NCBI GenBank assembly: GCA_963823335.1
Contig: CAWGLD010000001.1
Coordinates: 704,001 to 768,000 of the forward strand
Length of the DNA stretch: 64,000 bases
Reading direction: 5' to 3'
Source: an uncultured delta proteobacterium
Lineage (GTDB): Bacteria > Desulfobacterota > Desulfobacteria > Desulfobacterales > B30-G6
Numbering within the stretch: position 1 is the first letter of the stretch; each line of letters begins with the position of its first letter. The notes beneath the pieces are model-generated. The model was not told the origin of the DNA. It did not search any database and was given only the letters and a program-made list of their open reading frames with translations. Both the position numbers and the translations under genes were made by a program. Below, piece after piece: positions 7,968 through 61,427 of this stretch.

Positions 7968-8432
7968 CTACTTGCCGACGCAACGAGTGAAATCAATCCG
8001 GTCAAATTTGTCCAGGCGATTTTGATGCCGCCCTCCGTCAAATTCCGTTTTGAGCCATGCTTTCACGATCTCTTTGGCCAGCACGTCACCAATAACCCGA
8101 CCGCCCAGGACAAGGATGTTGGCATCGTTATGCTGACGGCTCATGACTGCGGCAAAAATATCACCGCAAAGTGCCGCCCTGACACCCGGAAAACGATTGG
8201 CTACCATGGACATACCAAGACCGGTACCGCACATCAGAAGACCCCGTTTCTGTTTACCGGAGGAGATGGCTGACGCTACCTTGATACCAAAATCGGGATA
8301 ATCCACGGAATCGGTCCCCAGGGCGCCGACATCTTCAACCGCAAAGCCCAGGCTCTCAAGATAAGATTTGATGGTTTCCTTCATCTGGTAGGCCGCGTGA
8401 TCACTGCCGATGACAATGGTTTCCTGTTCCAT
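7968..8432 (-). CDS. rpiB: Ribose-5-phosphate isomerase B
   Basis: GSDHA, DYPD, CGTGLGMS, HNDANIL and GGRH..R. Confidence 0.96.
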   Translation of the reverse strand: MEQETIVIGSDHAAYQMKETIKSYLESLGFAVEDVGALGTDSVDYPDFGIKVASAISSGKQKRGLLMCGTGLGMSMVANRFPGVRAALCGDIFAAVMSRQHNDANILVLGGRVIGDVLAKEIVKAWLKTEFDGGRHQNRLDKFDRIDFTRCVGK

Positions 8433-8448: not shown

Positions 8449-8490
8449 ATAAAATCGTATTTACGATTTTATCTGACGTGACTGCGTCAC
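8449..8490 (-). repeat. Double-hairpin motif, copy 1 (upstream of the rpiB RBS)
   Basis: Sense strand reads GTGAC-GCA-GTCAC GTCAG ATAAAATCG-TAAATA-CGATTTTAT, then TAAGGAAAGGA. Confidence 0.8.
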
Positions 8491-15077: not shown

Positions 15078-15118
15078 GCGGCAAAGCCGCGTCATATAAA
15101 TTTGTGAAACAAATTTAT
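15078..15118 (+). repeat. Double-hairpin motif, copy 2 (abuts the tRNA-Gln 5' end)
   Basis: GCGGC-AAA-GCCGC GTCAT ATAAATTTGT-GAA-ACAAATTTAT, immediately followed by TGGGGGA. Confidence 0.8.
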
Positions 15119-15192
15119 TGGGGGATCGTCTAGTGGTAGGACGACGGGTTCTGGCCCCGTTAACCCAGGTTCGAACCCTGGTCCCCCAGCCA
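15119..15192 (+). tRNA. tRNA-Gln (anticodon CTG)
   Basis: Acceptor stem TGGGGGA/TCCCCCA, anticodon arm ACGGG-TTCTGGC-CCCGT, T arm CCAGG-TTCGAAC-CCTGG, encoded CCA. Confidence 0.96.
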
Positions 15193-20967: not shown

Positions 20968-21079
20968 CATTTTATTACATTGAAATCATCTTTCATTTCT
21001 ACTATACATAAAATCGATTAACACTCTTATGACAAGCGACGTTGTCGCCCATACGAACAGCAAGCAGGAGACGGTACAG

Positions 21080-32663: not shown

Positions 32664-34676
32664 TTATCCAATCACCAGCAGAACATCGTTTTTGGCTACC
32701 GAATCACCGCTGGCATAATTAATGGCCTTGATGGCGCCGCTCACAGGTGCCGGAAGTGCATTTTCCATCTTCATCGCCTCAAGAACCACCACTGTTTCAC
32801 CCTCATTGACGCTGTCACCGACCTTCTTCAGATAGTTCACGATCATGCCGGGCATCGGCGATTTCAGCGCTGTACCCTCTACTGCCACGGGTGCCGGCTC
32901 AGGAGCCTTTTCCACTGCCGCTGCCGGCGCTGCCGGTTTGGGTGCGGCCGGTTTTGCCGCACCCGGCGCCATGGACTGCATATACGCGCCTGGCATCTGC
33001 GCCGGCATCTGCTGGATATAATTGATAACCGGAGATTCGCCTAACGCGTCAACACCCACCTCAAAATACTCGTCATCCACGAAAACATTGAATTTCCGCA
33101 GGTCATCGCTTTTTTCAGGTGCCGGTTTGGATGGTTTCTCGAATAGCAGGCCCTGCTTGGCTTTTTTAACCAGTTCTTCTTCGGCCTTGGCCTGCGCGAG
33201 GGTCCTGGGTTTGACATCCTCGGGCGGCTCTTCCTTGCCATATTTCCATTTCAGGAATTTTTTCCCGGTCACCGGATAGAGCGCATAAATGATCTCATCA
33301 TCAAGATCAACGGCCAGACCTTTGACATCTTCTTTTGCCTGGGGAAGTTCCGGTGGCAGCACCTCGGCCGGCCGGCAGGTAATGGGTGATTCGCCCCTTG
33401 AATACCCTTTCAACGCCTTTTTCTGGACTTCGGCATTGATGGGCACGGCTGTTTTTCCATAGAGCCCGTAGCAGAGGTCTTTGACCTGGTCGGTAATCAT
33501 TTTGTATCGTTCGTTTTTATCATCGAATAGAACATTGTTCACCGTCTGGATACCGACAATCTGGCTGGTGGGAGTCACGAGGGGTATCTGCCCCAGGTCT
33601 TTGCGGACGCGTGGCAGTTCCTTGTACACCTCATCGATTCGATCCAGGGCATCCATCTGTCGCAACTGATTGACCAGATTGGACAGCATCCCGCCCGGAG
33701 TCTGGTGCAGCAGGACATTGATGTCGGTGATCGCCACCTTGGAATCGTCCAGGAGGTGCTTGTATTTGGGCAGAATCTCTTTTTCCAGGATTTCGTTTAT
33801 ACCGGCCAGCTGTTTGATGTCAAATCCCGTGTCCCGGCTCGTACCTATCAGGGTCATGACCAGTGGCTCGATGGCGGCATGCGATGTGCGGTAGGCGTAT
33901 GGGGCCATACAGGTGTCGATGATGTCTACACCGGCTTCGATGGCCTTCAAGTGACTCATGGAGGACATGCCGGATGTAAAATGGCTGTGCAGATGAATGG
34001 GGGGCTTGACCGATGCTTTGAGAGCCTTGACGATCTCATAGGCGTCATAGGGGGCGATCAGGCCGGCCATGTCTTTGATACAGATGCTGTCGGCTCCCAT
34101 TGCCTCCAGGTCTTTGGCCTTTTGAACATAGTAGTCGAGGTTGTATACGTCACCACCCATACGGGGCTCCGTCATGGTGTAGCAGATACACCCTTGAAAA
34201 TGCTTACCGCATTCCTTTATTACGGGAACGACGGTTTCAAAATTGCGGTAATCGTTCAGGGCATCGAAGGTCCTGAAGATATCCATACCGTTTGCAGCGC
34301 TCCTCTCCACAAAAGCCCGGGCCAGATCATCCGCATAATTCCGGTATCCCACCAGATTCTGAGCACGCAGCAGCATGGAAAACGGTGTTTTCTTCATGTA
34401 GCGTTTCAGGGTGCGGATTCTTTCCCAGGGGTCCTCATTCAAAAACCGATGCATGGTGTCAAAGGTTGCCCCGCCCCAGGTTTCAACAGCCCAGAATCCT
34501 ACTTCGTCCATCATCTCGGCCACCGGGATCATGTCTTCGGTCCTTCCGCGGGTGGCAAAAAGGGATTGATGACCGTCGCGTAGCGTCAGGTCCTCTATCT
34601 TGACAGGATTTTCTGCCGCCGGCCTGTCTTTGTTGTAATCCATCGTTGTCATCTTGACTTGATTGTGATCGGTCAT
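32664..34676 (-). CDS. Pyruvate/oxaloacetate carboxyltransferase (5S-like) fused to a biotin carrier domain
   Basis: LRDGHQSL.ATR, WGGATFD, CIKDMAG, HLHSH, PGGMLSNL, PLVTPTSQIVG, Pro/Ala linker and EAMKMEN. Confidence 0.93.
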   Translation of the reverse strand: MTDHNQVKMTTMDYNKDRPAAENPVKIEDLTLRDGHQSLFATRGRTEDMIPVAEMMDEVGFWAVETWGGATFDTMHRFLNEDPWERIRTLKRYMKKTPFSMLLRAQNLVGYRNYADDLARAFVERSAANGMDIFRTFDALNDYRNFETVVPVIKECGKHFQGCICYTMTEPRMGGDVYNLDYYVQKAKDLEAMGADSICIKDMAGLIAPYDAYEIVKALKASVKPPIHLHSHFTSGMSSMSHLKAIEAGVDIIDTCMAPYAYRTSHAAIEPLVMTLIGTSRDTGFDIKQLAGINEILEKEILPKYKHLLDDSKVAITDINVLLHQTPGGMLSNLVNQLRQMDALDRIDEVYKELPRVRKDLGQIPLVTPTSQIVGIQTVNNVLFDDKNERYKMITDQVKDLCYGLYGKTAVPINAEVQKKALKGYSRGESPITCRPAEVLPPELPQAKEDVKGLAVDLDDEIIYALYPVTGKKFLKWKYGKEEPPEDVKPRTLAQAKAEEELVKKAKQGLLFEKPSKPAPEKSDDLRKFNVFVDDEYFEVGVDALGESPVINYIQQMPAQMPGAYMQSMAPGAAKPAAPKPAAPAAAVEKAPEPAPVAVEGTALKSPMPGMIVNYLKKVGDSVNEGETVVVLEAMKMENALPAPVSGAIKAINYASGDSVAKNDVLLVIG

Positions 34677-34697
34677 TTTACACGTTCTCCTCTCAAG

Positions 34698-34740
34698 AGA
34701 AAATCACCTGAAGTGATTTTATGTGATGCGGCTCGGCCGC
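34698..34740 (-). repeat. Double-hairpin motif, copy 3
   Basis: Sense strand GCGGC-CGA-GCCGC ATCAC ATAAAATCAC-TTCAG-GTGATTTTCT, then CTTGAGAGGAG. Confidence 0.75.
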
Positions 34741-34747
34741 TTTTGTA

Positions 34748-34975
34748 TTATCGAATCTTGACACCATGAAACGCTTTGAGCTGCATCATGCTACGCAGTT
34801 GCATCTGTGTCTGGCGCCCGCTCAATCCCCACATACTCACCTGTGGATACGCCGCAGCCTGAGGCCCCCGGGCACCTGCCTGGGCCTGCATGACCATGGC
34901 GCCGGCAATCTCTTCTTCCTCTTTGATATAGGCAAGCACAGCCGATGCCGCCGCGATTTTCTTTTTATTCTTCAT
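34748..34975 (-). CDS. Small carboxyltransferase-associated subunit (epsilon-like)
   Basis: IAAASAVLAYI...SMWGLSGR; lies between two carboxyltransferase genes. Confidence 0.75.
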   Translation of the reverse strand: MKNKKKIAAASAVLAYIKEEEEIAGAMVMQAQAGARGPQAAAYPQVSMWGLSGRQTQMQLRSMMQLKAFHGVKIR

Positions 34976-34994
34976 TGTTCCTCATCTTTCTTGA

Positions 34995-35040
34995 GCGGCA
35001 ACGCCGCGACACATAAATTTGTCCGCTAGGTCAAACTTAT
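34995..35040 (+). repeat. Double-hairpin motif, copy 4 (inverted relative to the operon)
   Basis: GCGGC-AAC-GCCGC GACAC ATAAATTTGTCC-GCTA-GGTCAAACTTAT. Confidence 0.65.
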
Positions 35041-36590
35041 ACGGGTATGTTCCCGTGTTTCTTGGGCGGTCTGAGTTCTCGCTTGTTGCACATGATTTCG
35101 AGTGCTTCGATCAAGCGGGGTCTTGTTTCACTGGGAACGATAACTGCATCGATAAAGCCCCTGTTGGCGGCGCGATATGGATTTGAAAAAAGCGCTTCAT
35201 AGGCCGCGATCTTCTCTTCACGCTTTGCTTTTGGATTGTCAGATTGCTGGATCTCCTTGCGATGAATGATATTGGCCGCACCGGCAGCCCCCATCACCGC
35301 AATTTCCGCCGTCGGCCAGGCAAAGGCCATGTCGGCACCTAAATCTTTGGAACACATGGCCAGGTATGACCCGCCGTAATCTTTGCGTGTCACCAGCAGC
35401 AGTTTGGGCACCGTCGCCTCTGAGTAACACCAGAGAAGCTTGGCACCGTGACGGATAATCCCTCCCCACTCCTGATGACTGCCGGGCAGGTAGCCCGGTA
35501 CATCGGCGATGGTCAGCATGGGGATATTGAAAGCATCACAGAACCGAATAAACCGCGTGGCCTTGTCCGAAGCATTGATGTCCAGGCAACCTGCCAGTTC
35601 GCGTGGCTGATTGGCGATGATCCCGATGCTTCTGTTGTTGAGCCGGGCAAAACCCACGATAATATTCTTTGCAAAATACTGGTGGGGTTCAAAAAACTCG
35701 CCCTTGTCGACGATGGAGCGGATAACCGCTTTCATGTCGTAGGACTTGCTGGGGCTGTCCGGAATAATGGTATCAAGCTCCCGGTCTTTCCGGGAAGGAT
35801 CGTCACCCATATTTACCTGAGGCGCATCCTCCATGTTGTTGGAAGGCAGATAAGACAGAAGTTTCTTGATTTCACCAATGGCATCTTCATCGCTGTCACA
35901 GGCAAACTGGGCCACGCCACTTTTTGCGTTATGGGTCATGGCACCACCCAGATCCTCGAAGGTGATTTCTTCTCCGGTCACCGACTTGATCACTTCCGGA
36001 CCGGTGATGAACATATACCCGCTGTTTTTGACCATGAAAATCCAATCCGTCATGGCAGGAGAATAGACGGCTCCGCCGGCGGTGGGCCCCATAATGGCTG
36101 AAATCTGGGGGATGACACCGGAGGCCAGGGAGTTTCGGTAAAAGATCTGGCCGTAGCCGGAAAGGGCATCCACACCCTCCTGAATCCTGGCACCGCCAGA
36201 GTCATTGAGCCCCACAAAGGGTACACCGGCTTTGAGCGCCAGGTCCATGACCTTGCAGATTTTTTTGGCGTGCATCTCTCCGAGGCTGCCGGCCCGGGCA
36301 GTAAAGTCCTGTGAAAACGCAAAAACAGGGCGCCCATCCACCAGGCCATGTCCTGTGATAACACCGTCGGAAGGTATCTCCACCTCCGGCATACCGAAAT
36401 TGACACATCGATGGGTGACGAACATGTCGATTTCACGGAATGTTCCCGGGTCAAACAACAGGTCAAGCCGTTTCCTTGCCGTCAACTTGCCCTTTTCCTG
36501 TTGCTTGGCCACAGCTTTCTGGCCGCCCATTTCCAGGATCCTTGTTTCCCGCGCCTTGAGATCCTTTATTTTATCTTCAACGGTACCCAT
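35037..36590 (-). CDS. Acyl-CoA carboxyltransferase beta subunit (methylmalonyl-CoA 12S / PccB-like)
   Basis: DSGGARIQEG, AGGAVYSPA, FIRFCDAFNIP, HGAKLL and KKHGNIPV. Confidence 0.95.
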   Translation of the reverse strand: MGTVEDKIKDLKARETRILEMGGQKAVAKQQEKGKLTARKRLDLLFDPGTFREIDMFVTHRCVNFGMPEVEIPSDGVITGHGLVDGRPVFAFSQDFTARAGSLGEMHAKKICKVMDLALKAGVPFVGLNDSGGARIQEGVDALSGYGQIFYRNSLASGVIPQISAIMGPTAGGAVYSPAMTDWIFMVKNSGYMFITGPEVIKSVTGEEITFEDLGGAMTHNAKSGVAQFACDSDEDAIGEIKKLLSYLPSNNMEDAPQVNMGDDPSRKDRELDTIIPDSPSKSYDMKAVIRSIVDKGEFFEPHQYFAKNIIVGFARLNNRSIGIIANQPRELAGCLDINASDKATRFIRFCDAFNIPMLTIADVPGYLPGSHQEWGGIIRHGAKLLWCYSEATVPKLLLVTRKDYGGSYLAMCSKDLGADMAFAWPTAEIAVMGAAGAANIIHRKEIQQSDNPKAKREEKIAAYEALFSNPYRAANRGFIDAVIVPSETRPRLIEALEIMCNKRELRPPKKHGNIPV

Positions 36591-36608
36591 ATCTTGTTCC
36601 TTTCCTTA

Positions 36609-36649
36609 ATAAATTCGTTGCACGAATTTATATGTCGCGACCTTGTCGC
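36609..36649 (-). repeat. Double-hairpin motif, copy 5
   Basis: Sense strand GCGAC-AAG-GTCGC GACAT ATAAATTCGT-GCA-ACGAATTTAT, then TAAGGAAAGGA. Confidence 0.8.
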
Positions 36650-36785
36650 TTTAATAATAGAATTTTTAAGCCCTTGAGGCGAGTTCGCAAAGCGCCAGGG
36701 GATTATTCATTTCGCGTTTGCTGATCCCAGAAAGTTGCGTAATTAAGCTCAAATACTAAATACTCTCCTGGAAAAAGTTATCATT

Positions 36786-37805
36786 CTAAACCGTTTCTTT
36801 ATTGTCAAGCGAAAAAAGCAGTTCATCCGCCGCCGCCTTGGGGGCCATTTCGCCGGCCGCCACATGACGGGTAATTTCCCCAAGACGTGATGCGATTTCA
36901 GGATGTTTATAAAATCGCGACTTGAGACCTTCTTCCACCAGGGACCACATCCAGTCCACATCCTGCCTGCGCCGTTTACGATCCAGCTCACCGCTGTTGA
37001 CAACTATTTCCCGGTGCTCCAGAACAGCGGACCAGATTGCCTTTATACCTTCATCCTCCGGGTTCAGTGAACTGCAGGTCAATGCTCTGGGTGTCCAGGC
37101 AGGTGAGGCCGGCATCAGATAATGTAAGGCGGCTTCAATCTGTTTCCTGGCCATGTTCGCTTTTTCGACATTGTCACCGTCTGCTTTGTTGATGGCAATG
37201 GCATCGGCAACTTCCAGGACGCCTTTCTTGATACCCTGAAGTTCGTCCCCGGCACCGGCTATCATCAGCAGGAGAAAAAAATCGACCATAGATGCAACGG
37301 TGGTTTCAGACTGGCCCACACCCACGGTTTCGACGATCATGACATCGTAGCCGGCAGCCTCGCAAACCAGCATGGTCTCTCTGGTTTTTCTGGCCACGCC
37401 TCCTAGGGTACCCCCTGAAGGGGAAGGACGGATAAAAGCATTTTCGGTCGTGGACAATTTTTCCATACGTGTCTTGTCTGCCAGGACACTGCCACCGCTG
37501 CGCTGACTGCTTGGATCGACAGCCAGGACCGCCACCAGATGCCCCTGGTTGACCAGACAGGTCCCCAGGGTTTCGATAAACGTGCTCTTTCCGGCACCCG
37601 GGACACCGCTGATACCAAGCCGGACGGCATTTCCTGTATATGGCAGCAAGGCATTGACCACCGCCCGGGCAAGCTGCTGATGTTCATAACGGGCACTTTC
37701 GATAAGCGTAATGGTTTTGGCCAGAATCCGCTTGTCCCTCTGTCGCACGCCCCGGGTGTAATAGGATGGGTCCTTGAGACCGCTATTATCATTGCTTTTT
37801 AGCAT
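36786..37805 (-). CDS. meaB: Methylmalonyl-CoA mutase-associated GTPase MeaB
   Basis: GVPGAGKST, AVDPSS, DKTRM, ETVGVGQSE, GDELQGIKKG and NKAD. Confidence 0.95.
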   Translation of the reverse strand: MLKSNDNSGLKDPSYYTRGVRQRDKRILAKTITLIESARYEHQQLARAVVNALLPYTGNAVRLGISGVPGAGKSTFIETLGTCLVNQGHLVAVLAVDPSSQRSGGSVLADKTRMEKLSTTENAFIRPSPSGGTLGGVARKTRETMLVCEAAGYDVMIVETVGVGQSETTVASMVDFFLLLMIAGAGDELQGIKKGVLEVADAIAINKADGDNVEKANMARKQIEAALHYLMPASPAWTPRALTCSSLNPEDEGIKAIWSAVLEHREIVVNSGELDRKRRRQDVDWMWSLVEEGLKSRFYKHPEIASRLGEITRHVAAGEMAPKAAADELLFSLDNKETV

Positions 37806-37840
37806 ACTGCCGTGCTTTATCTTTCTATAAAATAACATCC

Positions 37841-37919
37841 ATCACGAAAACACGAAACCTTGAAAACACGAAAAATTTATAGTCTTTTTCGTGTTTTCGT
37901 CCTTTCGTGTTTTCGTGAT
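37841..37919. repeat. ATCACGAAAACACGAAA...TTTCGTGTTTTCGTGAT hairpin repeat (family A)
   Basis: Perfect 17-bp outer inverted repeat plus a second inner pair. Confidence 0.85.
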
Positions 37920-37956
37920 AAAAAAATTTACTTTTTCCCTATGAATTCGGGTGATG

Positions 37957-40080
37957 TCATTTTTCAAGTACATTCAATATCTTGTTGGCCGACTCCGTTA
38001 CCACCGTTCCAGGGCCGAAAATCCCTACGGCACCGGCATCATAGAGGAAATCGTAATCACCCGGGGGTATCACACCCCCCACCACCACGCGGATGTCCTG
38101 GCCCCCTTTTTTCTTGAGCTCTGATATGAGCTGGGGCACCAGGGTCTTGTGCCCGGCCGCCAGACTGGAAACACCCACCACATGGACATCGTTTTCCACG
38201 GCCATCTTTGCCGCCTCTTGGGGTGTTTGAAACATGGGACTGATGTCCACGTCGAACCCCAGGTCGGCAAAGGCCGTGGCGATGACCTTGATACCCCTGT
38301 CATGACCATCCTGTCCCATTTTTGTCACCAGAATTCTGGGACGTCGGCCTTCCCGTTCCATGAAATCATCGGTCCGTTTCCTGACGGATGCAAAGATTTC
38401 ACTGTCACCGTACTCCGATGCATAGACCCCGGAGATACACTGGGTGGTTGCAACAAACCGGCCGAAAACAGATTCCATGGCATCGGATATTTCACCCACC
38501 GTTGCACGCGCCCGAACAGCGGAAATACAGGCTTCCAGAAGATTCCCATCTGCTTCGGCCGCACCCTTGATATGGGCAAGCGCCTGCTGGACGGCTTTGT
38601 TGTCTCTGGCGTTCTTGATCTGTTTCAGTCTTTGAATCTGCTCGTCACGAACCGACTCCGAAACCGCCAGAACTTCGTCAAGGGGCTCTTCCTCGATCCG
38701 ATGTTTGTTTACCCCCACGATAACATCCAGACCCTGATCGATGCGCGCCTGCTTGCGCGCGGCGGATTCTTCGATACGCATTTTCGGCATACCGGTCTCG
38801 ATGGCTTTGGCCATCCCTCCCAGCGCCTCCACCTCCTGGATGATTTTGCGCGCCTCTTCGATGATACCACCCGTGAGGGCTTCGATATAATAGGAACCGC
38901 CAAGGGGGTCCACCACATGACAGACCTGGGATTCTTCCTGGATGATAATCTGGGTGTTTCTTGATATTCTGGCCGAAAAATCGGTGGGTAAGCCAACCGC
39001 CTCATCAAATGAGTTGGTATGCAGGGACTGGGTGCCACCCAGCACTGCGGCCAGGGCTTCCAGTGTGGTCCGGATAATATTGTTGTAAGGGTCCTGTTCG
39101 GTCAGACTCCATCCGGATGTCTGCACGTGGGTGCGCAGCATGGATGATTTCGGGTTTTTGGGATTGAAGGTGCTGATAAGTTCGTGCCACAGAAACCGGG
39201 CCGCCCGCAGCATGGCGATCTCCATAAAAAAGTTCATACCCACCCCAAAGAAAAAGGAGAGCCGCGGTGCAAAGGTATCGATATCGAGACCGGCAGCCAG
39301 GGCGGCTTTGACATATTCCAGGCCGTCCGCCAGGGTAAAAGCCGTCTGGAGAACCGAATTGGCACCGGCTTCCATCATGTGGTAACCGCTGATACTGACC
39401 GTGTTGTACTTGGGCATGTGCTGGGAGCAATAGCCGATGATATCGGATACGATCCGCATGGAGGGCTTGGGCGGATAGATGTAGGTGTTGCGGGTCAGGT
39501 ATTCCTTTAAAATATCATTCTGGATCGTACCGGCCAGCTGTTCCTGCTTTATGCCCTGTTCTTCCGCCGCAACGATGTATCCCGCCAGGATGGGCAGGAC
39601 AGCACCGTTCATGGTCATGGACACCGTCATCTGATCCAGGGGTATCTGGTCGAAGAGGACCTTCATATCCTCGACCGAATCGATGGCCACGCCGGCCTTC
39701 CCCACATCACCCACAACCCTCGGGTGATCGGAATCGTAGCCCCGGTGGGTTGCCAGGTCAAAGGCAACGGAAAGTCCTTTTTGACCGGCAGCGATGTTCC
39801 GCCGGTAAAACGCATTGGAGTCCTTGGCCGTCGAAAACCCCGCGTATTGTCGTATGGTCCATGGCCGCCCCGCATACATGGTTGCCATGGGGCCCCGGAC
39901 ATAGGGTGCAAACCCGGGCAGGTTGTTGACATGCGCCAGGTCTTCCAGGTCCTCGGCCGTATACAGGGGCTTGACCCGAATGCCCTCCGGCGTATCCCAG
40001 TTGAGATCGTCGACTGATTTGCCCCTCAGCTGCTTGGCTGCCAGTTCTTCCCATTGTTTCATATTCGGTTTTTCCGACAT
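37957..40080 (-). CDS. scpA: Methylmalonyl-CoA mutase (B12-dependent)
   Basis: [39 protein letters not shown] and [11 protein letters not shown]12-binding motif. Confidence 0.98.
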
Positions 40081-40097: not shown

Positions 40098-40138
40098 ATA
40101 AAATCGTTACACGATTTTATGAAACGCGACATGATCGC
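40098..40138 (-). repeat. Double-hairpin motif, copy 6
   Basis: Sense strand GCGAT-CAT-GTCGC GTTTC ATAAAATCGT-GTA-ACGATTTTAT, then TACTGGAGGGAG. Confidence 0.8.
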
Positions 40139-41477: not shown

Positions 41478-42653
41478 CTATCGATATCCGTCCATCACCC
41501 GCTTAAAGCCCGGCATGGCCTTGACGATGGTGTCATCCGCCACGCAGAAGGCGATTCGGAAATGACCAGGCCCCATAAAGCCGCTACCTGGGACAACCAG
41601 GATCAGCTCCTCCTGCAGAGCTCTCACGAAGGCCACATCATCGGGGATGGGTGCTTTGGGAAAAAGATAAAATGCGCCGGGAGGTGTGATAAAATCATAG
41701 CCGCATTCCCGCAGGCCATCACACAACAGGTCCCGTTTACGCTTGTACAGGGACACATCCACACTCATCCCCTGCATTTCCGCCACCACCCGCTGCATCA
41801 GTGCCGGAGCGTTGACAAACCCGATAATGCGATTGGTCAGGGCCATGGCATTCATCAGGTCAGCTCTGTAGTCAGCCTGGGGATTGATTATGGTAAAGCC
41901 GATCCGTTCGCCGGGGATGGAGATGTCTTTTGAATAGGATGTTGCCATAATGCTGTTGCTGTAGCTGTCAAATATACAGGGTACGTGGGCATCATCGTAG
42001 ATTATTTTTCGATACGGCTCGTCCGCCACCAGGTAAATCGTTCTCTTAAACTGTGCGCTCTTTTCCTTCAAGAGCAGACCCAGGGCATCCAGACTGTCCT
42101 TGGAATAGACCTGCCCGGTGGGGTTGTTGGGTGAATTGATCAGAACAACTTTGGTCTTTTCGGTGACAGCGGTTGTCATGGCCTCCAGGTCCAGTGAAAA
42201 ATCGTCGCGGGTGGGCACGGTTTTAAAGACACCACCGTGGTTGTCGGTATAAAAATGGTATTCCACGAAACAGGGCTTTGGAGAAAGAACTTCATCACCC
42301 GGATCCAGTACTGCCTTGAGGATGATGTTCAAGGCACCGGCAGCACCGCAGGTCATGACCACATCATTTGCCGTAACGGAAACTCCCTGATCCCGCGAGA
42401 TATATTCAGCGATCTTTTCTCTGACATGGGGATAGCCTGCCTGGGGCATGTACCCATGCCCGCCGGTTTCCTTTACAATGTTTCTGAGGATCTGATCGAA
42501 TTTTTCCGGGGGTTCCAGGTTTGGATTTCCCAGACTGAAATCAAACACTTTTTCAGCTCCGTGTTCCGCTTTGAGGCGGGCGCCCTCCTCAAACATTTTT
42601 CGAATCCAGGATGACCTGGTCATAAACGCTTCGATTTTTTTGGAAATGGTCAT
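41478..42653 (-). CDS. PLP-dependent aminotransferase class I/II (aspartate aminotransferase-like)
   Basis: DFSLGNP, INSPNNPTG, DEPY and SYSKDISIPGERIG. Confidence 0.93.
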   Translation of the reverse strand: MTISKKIEAFMTRSSWIRKMFEEGARLKAEHGAEKVFDFSLGNPNLEPPEKFDQILRNIVKETGGHGYMPQAGYPHVREKIAEYISRDQGVSVTANDVVMTCGAAGALNIILKAVLDPGDEVLSPKPCFVEYHFYTDNHGGVFKTVPTRDDFSLDLEAMTTAVTEKTKVVLINSPNNPTGQVYSKDSLDALGLLLKEKSAQFKRTIYLVADEPYRKIIYDDAHVPCIFDSYSNSIMATSYSKDISIPGERIGFTIINPQADYRADLMNAMALTNRIIGFVNAPALMQRVVAEMQGMSVDVSLYKRKRDLLCDGLRECGYDFITPPGAFYLFPKAPIPDDVAFVRALQEELILVVPGSGFMGPGHFRIAFCVADDTIVKAMPGFKRVMDGYR

Positions 42654-42666
42654 TTACTTTACCTCC

Positions 42667-42707
42667 ATAAATTCGCTGCGCGACTTTATTTGACGCGACG
42701 GTGTCGC
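42667..42707 (-). repeat. Double-hairpin motif, copy 7
   Basis: Sense strand GCGAC-ACC-GTCGC GTCAA ATAAAGTCGC-GCA-GCGAATTTAT, then GGAGGT. Confidence 0.8.
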
Positions 42708-46230: not shown

Positions 46231-46416
46231 TTAGCGCTTTCCGATATATACCAAAAAGAGACCCAGACCCATAAGAATCAGGCCGGTACGTCGCAACTGC
46301 AGGTCCGGCATTTCAATTACCTTTCGAACCCAGACCTTCATCTTGTCCGGAAATGCAAAATAGGGGATTCCTTCAACAATCATGACCATGCCCAGAACGC
46401 ACAGGAAAAATTCCAT
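46231..46416 (-). CDS. DUF2065 small membrane protein
   Basis: MEFFLCVLGMVMIVEGIPYFAFP...LRRTG; GAGGAG SD. Confidence 0.85.
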   Translation of the reverse strand: MEFFLCVLGMVMIVEGIPYFAFPDKMKVWVRKVIEMPDLQLRRTGLILMGLGLFLVYIGKR

Positions 46417-46544: not shown

Positions 46545-46585
46545 ATAAAATCGTGGTACGATTTTATCTGGCGCGGCTACGCCGC
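46545..46585 (-). repeat. Double-hairpin motif, copy 8 (followed by a TTGACA -35-like box)
   Basis: Minus strand GCGGC-GTA-GCCGC GCCAG ATAAAATCGT-ACC-ACGATTTTAT TTTGACA. Confidence 0.8.
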
Positions 46586-55773: not shown

Positions 55774-56352
55774 TTATGCCAACTTTCCATCCAGCTCAAA
55801 AGATCCTGACAATTGATAATCCAGATAGTGCATCACAATCTTTTTCCTGACTGGATTGTTGAAAATGTATTTCACCGTTTCCAACAAATCTTCATCTTTT
55901 CGCAATACATGGTCATAAAAGCTTGGTTGCCAGAGTTTTGCTTTATCTGCAGGGCTGAAGCCCTGCACTACATCACCCGGATCACCCTTTTTCTCGTAGC
56001 CCAGGGCTTCAGCCCTGCTATCCAGATGCGTGACTTTTACCTTGTTAGAACGGCTATAATGATAGCCGGCACTTTGTTTGAAAGATGATACGAATTTCTT
56101 TAAGTCGGCATCCTGCTCCATCCCTTCTGCAAGAAAGTGAACATGATCCGGCATAAAACAGTACGCCCAAACCTTAAAATGAAATGCTATAGCTTTTTCA
56201 GCAAGCAACTCAATGTATTGTTTAGCAATCTCTCTATTATGAAATACTGGATTCTTATTTTGGGTGCAAATGGTAATAAAATAACGGTAATGTCCTGTAT
56301 AATCAAATCCCTTTAATCTTGGTCGCCGTTTGAATTTCCTCTTGATAACCAT
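55774..56352 (-). mobile_element. REP-associated tyrosine transposase (RAYT, HUH Y1 family)
   Basis: RLKGFDY, YFITICT, MPDHVH (HUH), LWQPSFYDHVLR and KYIFNNP; adjacent GTAG REPs. Confidence 0.92.
55949..56018. repeat. Inverted REP pair inside the RAYT ORF
   Basis: GTAGTGCAGGGCTTCAGCCCTGC on - (55949-55971) and GTAGCCCAGGGCTTCAGCCCTGC on + (55996-56018). Confidence 0.9.
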
Positions 56353-61148: not shown

Positions 61149-61169
61149 ATAAATCGTTGCCGATTTTAT
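61149..61169 (-). repeat. Partial double-hairpin motif (second hairpin only) upstream of argS
   Basis: Minus strand ATAAAATCG-GCAA-CGATTTAT. Confidence 0.5.
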
Positions 61170-61427
61170 TTTCGTGGATTGATTTTATGCGATCCTAAAC
61201 AAATAACAATGAAAATGTCGACGTGAAGGGAATAATGGCTTTTCTTTAACAAGTCAAGGGGCTTTGATTCGGTCTTGACTCGATACCGGGAATATCCTAT
61301 ATAGGATTCACTAATAATTACAGGTTGAAGCCTGTTCATAAAAAGACTGTTCACAAATACAAGGCCACGGACACAACGGCATTTGGAAGATGCCAAAGCA
61401 TTCGTGGCTTTTTTATTGGAGGTACCG

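Follow-up and report, generated by a model that had tools for sequence, protein, structure and literature searches.

A polar two-hairpin, REP-like repeat at gene borders in an uncultured desulfobacterial genome

The window analyzed here is a stretch of 64,000 nucleotides (positions 704001-768000 of contig C1) from the 4.37-Mb genome of an uncultured member of the Desulfobacterales, assembled in 11 contigs (G000). It carries a short motif of two dissimilar hairpins that stands beside genes as different as rpiB, a tRNA-Gln gene, and those of a methylmalonyl-CoA operon. When the copies in the window are placed into the context of the whole genome and of related genomes, they are found to belong to a family that lies with fixed polarity at gene borders, whose stems stay paired at individual loci, and which is best filed beside the repetitive extragenic palindromic (REP) elements.

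Copies in the window and anatomy of the unit

On the strand that begins with the first hairpin (hp1), the motif consensus is GCGRC-N3-GYCGC, a 5-nt linker, and then the second hairpin (hp2), ATAAAWTCGY-N3-RCGAWTTTAT; with an A-rich 5' tail, the unit measures about 47 nt. Hp1 is a G+C-rich hairpin of 5 bp with a 3-nt loop and is nearly fixed in sequence. Hp2 is an A+T-rich stem of 10 bp, one pair longer than drawn in a preliminary description of this DNA that had recognized the stem, and its loop is 3 nt long in 131 of the 149 near-full copies of the genome (those scoring at least 20 bits). The tail comprises the 6 nt upstream of hp1, with A in 93-94% of copies at position -1 and in 44-69% at positions -2 to -6; a promoter inside or upstream of hp1 was rejected, as no fixed -35-like hexamer was found upstream in the copies, only this A-rich run. 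The linker begins with GTC in at least 52 of 149 copies, GTT, GCC, and GAC forms also occurring, and hp2 is followed by a T in about 75% of copies, a share that does not differ between the two gene contexts defined below.

A hidden Markov model built on 80 strict genomic copies and scanned over the window with nhmmer (E<10) returned nine motif places, eight of them full copies and one degenerate (21008-21048). The preliminary description had been right that the double hairpin is a genuine repeat, and its eight full copies are all present; the ninth copy that it counted, at 61149, proves to be an hp2-like palindrome only, and the degenerate copy had been missed. Seven matches to the hp1 pattern GCGRCNNNGYCGC are present in the window; 100 shuffles gave a mean of 0.16, and none reached 7. 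The two hairpins form the minimum-energy fold in 7 of the 9 stretches tested, with z scores of -2.8 to -5.1, and the weakest z values among the nine belong to the copies at 42667 (-0.95) and 34995 (-0.79). A Shine-Dalgarno sequence (SD) lies 0-6 nt beyond the end of five copies (8449, 34698, 36609, 40098, and 42667), as had been noticed at the outset.

Pfam matches back the identity of the neighboring genes, which encode RpiB, a methylmalonyl-CoA epimerase-like glyoxalase protein, methylmalonyl-CoA mutase, MeaB, a carboxyltransferase, a carboxylase/biotin-carrier protein, an aminotransferase, a DUF2065 protein, and ArgRS. In the following list, start-side denotes a copy at most 35 nt from a co-oriented start, and stop-side one at most 10 nt from a stop codon.

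8449-8490, minus strand: full copy, start-side, with the hp1 variant GTGAC/GTCAC; hp2 ends 1 nt ahead of the AAGGAAAGG SD of rpiB (gene 7968-8432, Pfam match LacAB_rpiB); fold z -5.1
15078-15118, plus strand: full copy at a tRNA gene; the last base of hp2 directly precedes mature tRNA-Gln (15119-15189)
21008-21048, minus strand: degenerate copy with hp1 intact (pattern match 21036-21048) and hp2 decayed; nhmmer 13.5 bits, E 0.33
34698-34740, minus strand: full copy, start-side, preceding the 5S-like carboxylase/biotin-carrier gene (32664-34676); hp2 variant AATCAC/GTGATT
34995-35040, plus strand: inverted copy, stop-side, with a longer and imperfect hp2 stem; its last 4 nt lie within the stop codon of the 12S-like carboxyltransferase gene (35037-36590, minus strand)
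36609-36649, minus strand: full copy on the start side, ending 1 nt short of the SD of the 12S-like carboxyltransferase gene
40098-40138, minus strand: full copy, start-side, with 4 nt between its end and the GGAGGG SD of the methylmalonyl-CoA mutase gene (37957-40080)
42667-42707, minus strand: full copy, start-side, adjoining the GGAGG SD of the aminotransferase gene (41478-42653)
46545-46585, minus strand: full copy, promoter side, about 128 nt before the DUF2065 gene (46231-46416); TTGACA, a -35-like box that probably belongs to a promoter, follows 2 nt after hp2
61149-61175, strand unassigned: imperfect palindrome resembling hp2, some 22 nt upstream of the argS start, without hp1 and not among the nhmmer matches at E<10; of doubtful membership in the family

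Placement, pairing, and inheritance

The genome contains 286 non-overlapping nhmmer matches at E<10, and 144 of the 149 near-full copies lie between called genes, gene coordinates and starts being taken from crude open reading frame (ORF) calls of our own (4167 genes). Exact hp1 palindromes fall inside motif matches in 157 of 173 cases, so that hp1 is almost never found alone, and hp2 occurs as 34 solo units. The copies are mostly singletons: 5 neighboring pairs less than 400 nt apart were counted among the 149, and inverted paired units, the organization of BIMEs and REPINs, are not the rule. In its copy number, its intergenic location, and the folding of both hairpins, the motif is a short, high-copy, extragenic palindrome of the kind by which REP elements are defined.

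The placement of these copies is polar. Hp2 is the side nearer a gene in 122 of the 144 intergenic copies (p 5e-18), and a gene border lies within 18 nt of the hp2 end in 106 of them, against 8 for the hp1 end and 29 +/- 4 for random placement in the same gaps; a genome-wide look at position, proposed earlier as a check, thus reveals a strong bias. A co-oriented gene starts downstream of 72 copies, and an opposite-strand gene ends at hp2 in 72. Distances to starts cluster at 13-17 nt, which corresponds to an SD plus spacer, or at 0-2 nt, and distances to stops at -4. By the definitions given above, 45 of 149 copies are start-side and 64 are stop-side (with an opposite-strand gene), the rest mostly not being clearly classed. 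The preliminary statement that the motif stands mostly 5' of ribosome-binding sites accordingly holds for the window (5 of 8 copies) but not genome-wide, and co-orientation with the downstream gene was a window effect.

In 33 of the 64 stop-side copies, the TAA within ATAAA is itself the stop codon, and most other stops touch the element. Random in-frame truncation of ORFs can be dismissed as the cause of the -4 class, since few stops (5 of 64) lie deeper within the element. The same hp2 side adjoins the mature 5' ends of tRNA-Gln and tRNA-Lys (0-1 nt), lies about 50 nt upstream of tRNA-Ser and tRNA-Met with a -35-like box in the stretch between, and has a -35-like box within 16 nt in about 13 of the 149 copies. 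Solo hp2 units obey the same border rule, which is also seen in 400 kb of the congener G005 and in G015, a genome of another family.

The orientation of the copies is also biased with respect to replication, the direction of which was inferred from GC skew. The G-rich strand was taken as the leading strand, a choice supported by the 59% of genes that lie on it, and the top strand of the motif lies on this strand in 104 of 138 scorable copies (p 2e-9). As the bias appears in both gene contexts (58 of 71 start-side and 44 of 63 stop-side copies), gene orientation does not explain it. On contig C1, orientations split 9:24 to the left and 26:9 to the right of the skew switch. The skew of this 2-Mb contig changes sign, in an origin-like manner, near 980 kb (around C1 980000), and the sole full dnaA match lies on another contig (C8:48960-49442). 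Leading-strand sequence corresponds to the lagging-strand template, which is the strand used by IS608-type elements (PMC3333891).

Covariation of the stems, already apparent from the window, is strong. Among 28 diverse copies, 97.4% of cells pair (shuffles, 90.0%), both partners have changed in 7 pairs, none of 500 shuffles reached the covariation score, and partners slid out of register pair in only 29-47%. Across the 149 copies, four pairs alternate between two Watson-Crick states with few mismatches, among them pair 4 (AT 96, GC 47, unpaired 6), pair 11 (AT 98, TA 41), and pair 15 (TA 83, CG 44). Of the 16 combinations that the Watson-Crick states of these four pairs allow, 14 were found, and linkage is weak; the stem variants are therefore not merely a few subfamilies. 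The joint change of both half-sites favors a hairpin and disfavors a duplex operator. The view that structure rather than sequence is conserved describes the stems in so far as they covary, but hp1 is near-invariant apart from one covarying pair.

Inheritance of individual copies was followed in a sample of about 1.2 Mb on five contigs from four congeners (G001, G004, G005, and G007). From it 50 copies were taken, of which 40 could be anchored in G000; with alignments read by eye, about 31 of these 40 sites carry the motif in G000, 3 hold decayed remains, and 6 are without it. Flanking coding DNA is 80-97% identical between the species that share sites, and the intergenic DNA around orthologous copies is otherwise unalignable and rich in other repeats. 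From the window, the copy at 42667 is kept in all four congeners, those at 34698 (with differing stem variants) and 36609 (where the tenth hp2 pair has changed on both sides, from T-A to C-G) in G001, G004, and G007, that at 15078 at the same site in G004 and G007, and that at 34995 in G004 and G007 and partly in G001. The ortholog of the copy at 8449 in G007 has GCGAC/GTCGC, and G004 has no copy there; the site of the copy at 40098 is empty in G004, G005, and G007 and degenerate in G001.

Twenty-three orthologous pairs were cleanly parsed, three G000 loci being counted against more than one relative. The arms of hp1 differ at 1/115 and 5/115 positions and those of hp2 at 28/230 and 19/230, the loops at 17/69 and 26/70, the linkers at 23/112, and the upstream flank at 80/276; that is, orthologous stems diverge by 1-12% and loops by 25-37%. 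In eleven double changes one Watson-Crick pair is replaced by a different one (5 loci, with at least 9 separate events), where a rough estimate gives about 1 by chance, and these stand beside 13 single breaks and 8 changes to G-T; at one such compensated locus, ATAAAATCG/CGATTTTAT corresponds to ATTGGATCG/CGATCCGAT. Stems are thus kept paired over evolutionary time at individual orthologous loci, which makes them unlike a dead transposition relic, and the pairing kept by compensatory change that characterizes REP elements is found both among copies and at orthologous loci. No clean empty site was found in the sample: where one species lacks the motif, the stretch ahead of the SD either cannot be aligned or is occupied by other repeats, and no target sequence can be defined.

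A covariance model, which the preliminary description had suggested building, finds the motif in 18 of 31 related genomes, including 9 of 9 congeners, 4 of 4 genomes of a sister genus, and single genomes of three other families (143, 63, and 5 matches). The motif was not found in the remaining 13 of the 31 or in 120 other genomes of the phylum, and with regard to a phage vector, its pattern occurs in 0 viral contigs. Around the mutase gene, the motif is present only in the closest named relative (89% protein identity), and the copies of G015 lie at different places than those of G000.

Metatranscriptome contigs from two runs span the copies at 34698, 34995, and 42667 with flanking genes, an RNA-library contig on 42208-42711 covering the last of these, and one RNA-library contig departs from the window sequence right at the outer edge of hp1. 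As all four runs considered consist of assembled contigs, these data speak to presence and not to ends or levels, and carry-over of DNA is possible; contig joints near repeats, with sides of just 20-35 nt, were set aside. A simple terminator scan flags the opposite strand of hp1 at 34728 and 42695.

Other repeats and a small ORF were observed near the copies. A separate repeat of about 78 nt (36669-36746, minus strand), containing the hairpin CCCCTGGCGCTTTGCGAACTCGCCTCAAGGG, lies just upstream of the motif at the carboxyltransferase gene and has dozens of 82-94% matches dispersed in four congener genomes. Between the mutase stop and MeaB lies a hairpin repeat of about 100 nt with CACGAAAACACGAAA-type words (37829-37938, minus strand) and many dispersed matches in congeners; in G004, G005, and G007, the place of the 41-nt motif upstream of the mutase SD is taken by related TTTCGTGTTTTCGTG words. 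Across G000 there is, in addition, a miniature element of about 95 nt (for example, C8:106861-106960) with the ends GGGGTTGTCAGAA... and ...TTATGACAAGCGG and TATA on both flanks, of which 49 left ends were counted, 36 with a right end 94-95 nt on. Three to five of its copies sit inside the 41-nt motif, at the TATA of linker plus hp2, which looks like a consequence of the TATA target and not like aiming at the motif. Two motif copies of opposite orientation bracket a 75-amino-acid (aa) ORF (34748-34975, minus strand) between the carboxyltransferase and carboxylase/biotin-carrier genes; it has no Pfam match and could be a small subunit of the carboxylase complex.

Spread, retention, and rival explanations

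Among the three options offered in the preliminary description, a targeted REP-like element is the best fit. We propose that the motif may be a lineage-specific REP-class repeat that spread via single-stranded DNA and was retained as a transcribed hairpin module at mRNA borders, a proposal in which our belief and our doubt are about evenly balanced. The replication-strand bias argues for a single-stranded DNA origin, and the locus-by-locus compensatory evolution argues for function in place. The element may have spread at replication forks through hairpins of single-stranded DNA, in the manner of IS200/IS605 elements and by a route already suggested for REPs, copies being kept because their hairpins, once transcribed, are of use at the borders of mRNAs. 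Transcribed from the opposite strand, the element would present the stop codon, hp2 and hp1 in their complementary forms (hp2' and hp1'), and a short U-rich tail, and could protect the 3' end or terminate weakly. In the sense direction, the element would not terminate, and the hairpin just upstream of the SD could act as a 5' or intercistronic stabilizer or insulator. The polarity might then follow if the orientation that places a hairpin before a U-rich tail is tolerated only behind genes, and in both orientations the easily melted A+T hairpin would lie within reach of the ribosome, with the G+C clamp away from it.

Several observations weigh against this proposal. The border distances depend on our crude ORF calls, and the proposed mechanism holds no explanation for the flush-to-the-base position of the hp2 end. 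The strand bias is weakly repeated in small samples of four other genomes (9/14 in G015, 14/25 in G005, 7/10 in G004, and 6/7 in G007; pooled, 36/56). The RNA evidence consists of contigs only, from libraries that may contain DNA. Terminator features are weak, hp1 having only 5 bp and the tail about 4-6 T-rich positions, and in 12 of 52 tandem-gene contexts the distance from hp1' to the next start is at most 34 nt, so that read-through is needed there and the element is no obligatory terminator. Mismatches of the G:T and A:C types number 17:8 in start-side and 22:21 in stop-side copies, and as this strand asymmetry is not significant (p 0.21), the data are silent on whether RNA or single-stranded DNA is the selected form. 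The search for a mobilizing enzyme (Y1_Tnp, GIY-YIG) likewise gave no motif-linked candidate.

In that search, G000 showed 8 Y1_Tnp matches, none of them flanked by motif copies; within 3 kb there is only a weak partial match (13.2 bits) near C4:395371. Four of the Y1 proteins (C1:782459-783409, C2:73870-74820, C4:394753-395733, and C4:263291-264334), 316-347 aa long, have an IS200-like Y1 domain, accompanied in three by a sub-threshold match to a DnaA-C-type helix-turn-helix and in one by a different helix-turn-helix match. Homologs of this Y1+DnaA_C family occur in 26 of the 31 related genomes, and the motif consensus contains no GTAG tag. A link to RAYT proteins was rejected, given that no Y1_Tnp match is flanked by the motif and that the Y1+DnaA_C family is also present in 8 of the 13 motif-less relatives. 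The window itself holds a fragment of a Y1_Tnp (IS200-like) gene (55774-56289, minus strand; profile positions 5-84, 42.8 bits) that seems truncated or frameshifted and whose 126-aa ORF scores below the Pfam cut-off. The one intact small GIY-YIG gene of G000 (C2:43552-43902) has no motif copy within 5 kb, small GIY-YIG loci in relatives have one within about 1.5 kb in 3 of 21 cases, which is about background density, and the motif-rich congeners G005, G006, and G009 have only a UvrC-sized GIY-YIG match. A link to Ssn-type GIY-YIG proteins is unsupported in view of the G000 gene without nearby copies and these three congeners. In G004, a small GIY-YIG ORF lies directly beside the ortholog of a Y1+DnaA_C gene (G004:C2:242129-243530); no such ORF was seen at the corresponding place in G000.

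Two of the rival explanations place the motif in DNA. Patchy occurrence (18 of the 31 relatives, none of 120 genomes elsewhere in the phylum), different places in G015, gains and losses within the genus (6 absent and 3 decayed among 40 sites), the replication-strand bias, and stop codons that often are the element's own TAA or touch it are all features that a purely selfish miniature mobile element could display, its border position arising from the choice of insertion sites (A/T-rich or TAA-like ones, for example) combined with the purging of harmful insertions. We regard this as unlikely, as about 31 of 40 sites are shared between species though other intergenic DNA is unalignable, the stems are preserved 3 to 25 times better than the loops and flanks, and neutral relics should decay instead of acquiring locus-specific compensated variants such as ATTGGATCG/CGATCCGAT. 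It could also be speculated that the hairpins are a signal on the lagging-strand template, read by a host protein (for example, of the Y1-HUH type with a DnaA-C-type helix-turn-helix) in replication, repair, or chromosome organization, and the strand bias against GC skew in both gene contexts, the near-invariance of hp1 (157 of 173 palindromes inside the motif, orthologous arms differing by 1-4%), and the several Y1_Tnp + Bac_DnaA_C genes of the genome would suit such a signal. The strict tie to SDs, stop codons, and tRNA ends points instead to gene expression; the Y1 family occurs in motif-less relatives and no copy flanks its genes; and the bias, at 75%, falls short of near-absolute and is weak in the small samples from elsewhere, so that this idea, too, appears improbable.

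Other explanations start from gene expression. A sequence-specific endoribonuclease that recognizes hp1/hp2 and cuts in such a way that mRNAs begin with the SD, tRNAs receive their 5' end, and the message upstream is left with a terminal hairpin would agree with the short distance from the end of hp2 to the following SD (0-4 nt) or, in two cases, to the mature 5' end of a tRNA (0-1 nt), with the many copies inside operons, and with a fixed hp1 suited to recognition by a protein. It is quite unlikely, considering that no nuclease gene is linked to the motif in the Y1_Tnp and GIY-YIG surroundings examined, that at least 13 copies lie upstream of -35-like boxes and hence outside the transcript to be punctuated, and that 64 copies sit in opposite orientation on stop codons. 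A related and bolder idea, to which we give an equally low standing, is a punctuation signal for gene borders, in which a dedicated host protein would recognize the fixed hp1 and cut or protect at the hp2 boundary, thereby setting message and tRNA ends, the hairpins also acting on the lagging-strand template; if true, it would be a bacterial counterpart of tRNA punctuation or Cas6-style processing derived from a domesticated REP. The 10-3-10 palindrome of hp2 near promoters and starts might recall the duplex-DNA operator of a dimeric transcription factor or a riboswitch-like leader of a regulon, but half-sites that change jointly with pairing kept are expected of a hairpin and not of a duplex operator, and an element this small and uniform, with no Rfam match, hardly suits a ligand pocket. 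A gene-specific leader or riboswitch is excluded by the unrelated downstream genes and the many copies on stop codons, and operator and leader together must be considered barely credible, the neighboring genes being functionally unrelated and 64 copies lying on stop codons.

The proposal of a REP-class repeat retained at mRNA borders bears on a wider question, as the function and spread of the abundant REPs are still disputed and this family is an unusually clean case: a polar two-hairpin unit with its weak hairpin facing the ORF, placed to the base at SDs, stops, tRNA ends, and -35 boxes. If it is the hairpins that determine mRNA ends or the efficiency of translation, the expression of central pathways in uncultured sulfate reducers, including the whole methylmalonyl-CoA operon, would be shaped by them; the hairpins could also be used as compact insulator parts.

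Comparison with known systems

The Rfam search that had been proposed as a check matched no family to the motif: the only window match above the gathering score is tRNA, and nothing relevant was found on 34600-36800 at E up to 10. A published description of the motif family was not found in the literature searched on REP elements and Desulfobacter and on REP strand orientation, nor did the papers found there appear to treat a strand bias of REPs. Among functional hairpins, intercistronic ones that stabilize mRNA are known, for example the malE-malF REP. Like intrinsic terminators and stabilizing hairpins, stop-side copies read on the gene strand, right from the stop codon, as a hairpin followed by a T-rich tail; unlike intrinsic terminators, they have a tail-adjacent stem of only 5 bp, start-side copies possess the tail to the same degree, and in 12 of 52 tandem contexts a new promoter would not fit.

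With IS200/IS605 elements and their gene-less derivatives (PATEs), the motif shares hairpins near both ends and an orientation bias consistent with insertion into the lagging-strand template, as PMC3333891 states for IS608 and ISDra2. It differs from them in measuring only 41-47 nt, in that no transposase-bearing master copy was found, and in having no fixed target tetranucleotide but only an A-rich 5' flank and a T after hp2.

The likeness to REPs, BIMEs, and REPINs is broader and takes in the short imperfect palindrome, the hundreds of extragenic copies, the compensatory stem variation, the many copies near or on stop codons, presumable transcription, and an active form that is likely a single-stranded hairpin (PMC3333891, in part). 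Unlike a REP, the motif is a unit of two dissimilar hairpins with fixed polarity, and its copies are nearly all singletons. A third of them lie flush upstream of SDs and others at tRNA 5' ends or -35 boxes, whereas REPs between co-directional genes stand at varying distances from the downstream ORF, according to portions of PMC3733652. It also differs from the REP/RAYT system in the absence of Y1 genes flanked by its copies and of a GTAG tag.

The closest comparison concerns REPs with a CGTC tag, which, in the excerpts of PMC3733652 consulted, have an unpaired CGTC (or TGTC/CCTC), an AT-starting stem of 8-9 bp, a loop of 4-5 nt, and a CCA-like tail; CGTC-type REPs, including Ssn-related motifs and the Neisseria NTS, are tied to SsnA GIY-YIG single-strand nucleases in the part of PMC11893778 consulted. 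Measured against these published texts and not against consensus alignments, hp2 is similar in its stem of 9-10 bp beginning with AT and its small loop, and the last C of hp1 plus a GTC linker spells CGTC upstream of hp2 for at least 52 of 149 linkers. The tag of the motif, however, stands 2 nt from the stem and is variable, solo hp2 units are without it, the CCA-like tail is lacking (T comes next in about 75%), head-to-head dimers do not occur, and hp1 is an additional clamp. Unlike Ssn-related motifs as presented in those pages of PMC11893778, copies do not flank the small GIY-YIG gene of G000. Neither PMC3733652 nor PMC11893778, as far as consulted, contains an obligatory hp1 clamp, a fixed ORF-facing polarity, or flush placement at SDs, tRNAs, and -35 boxes. 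With these features of its own, the motif is best filed beside the REP elements, and hp2 in particular resembles their CGTC-tagged class.

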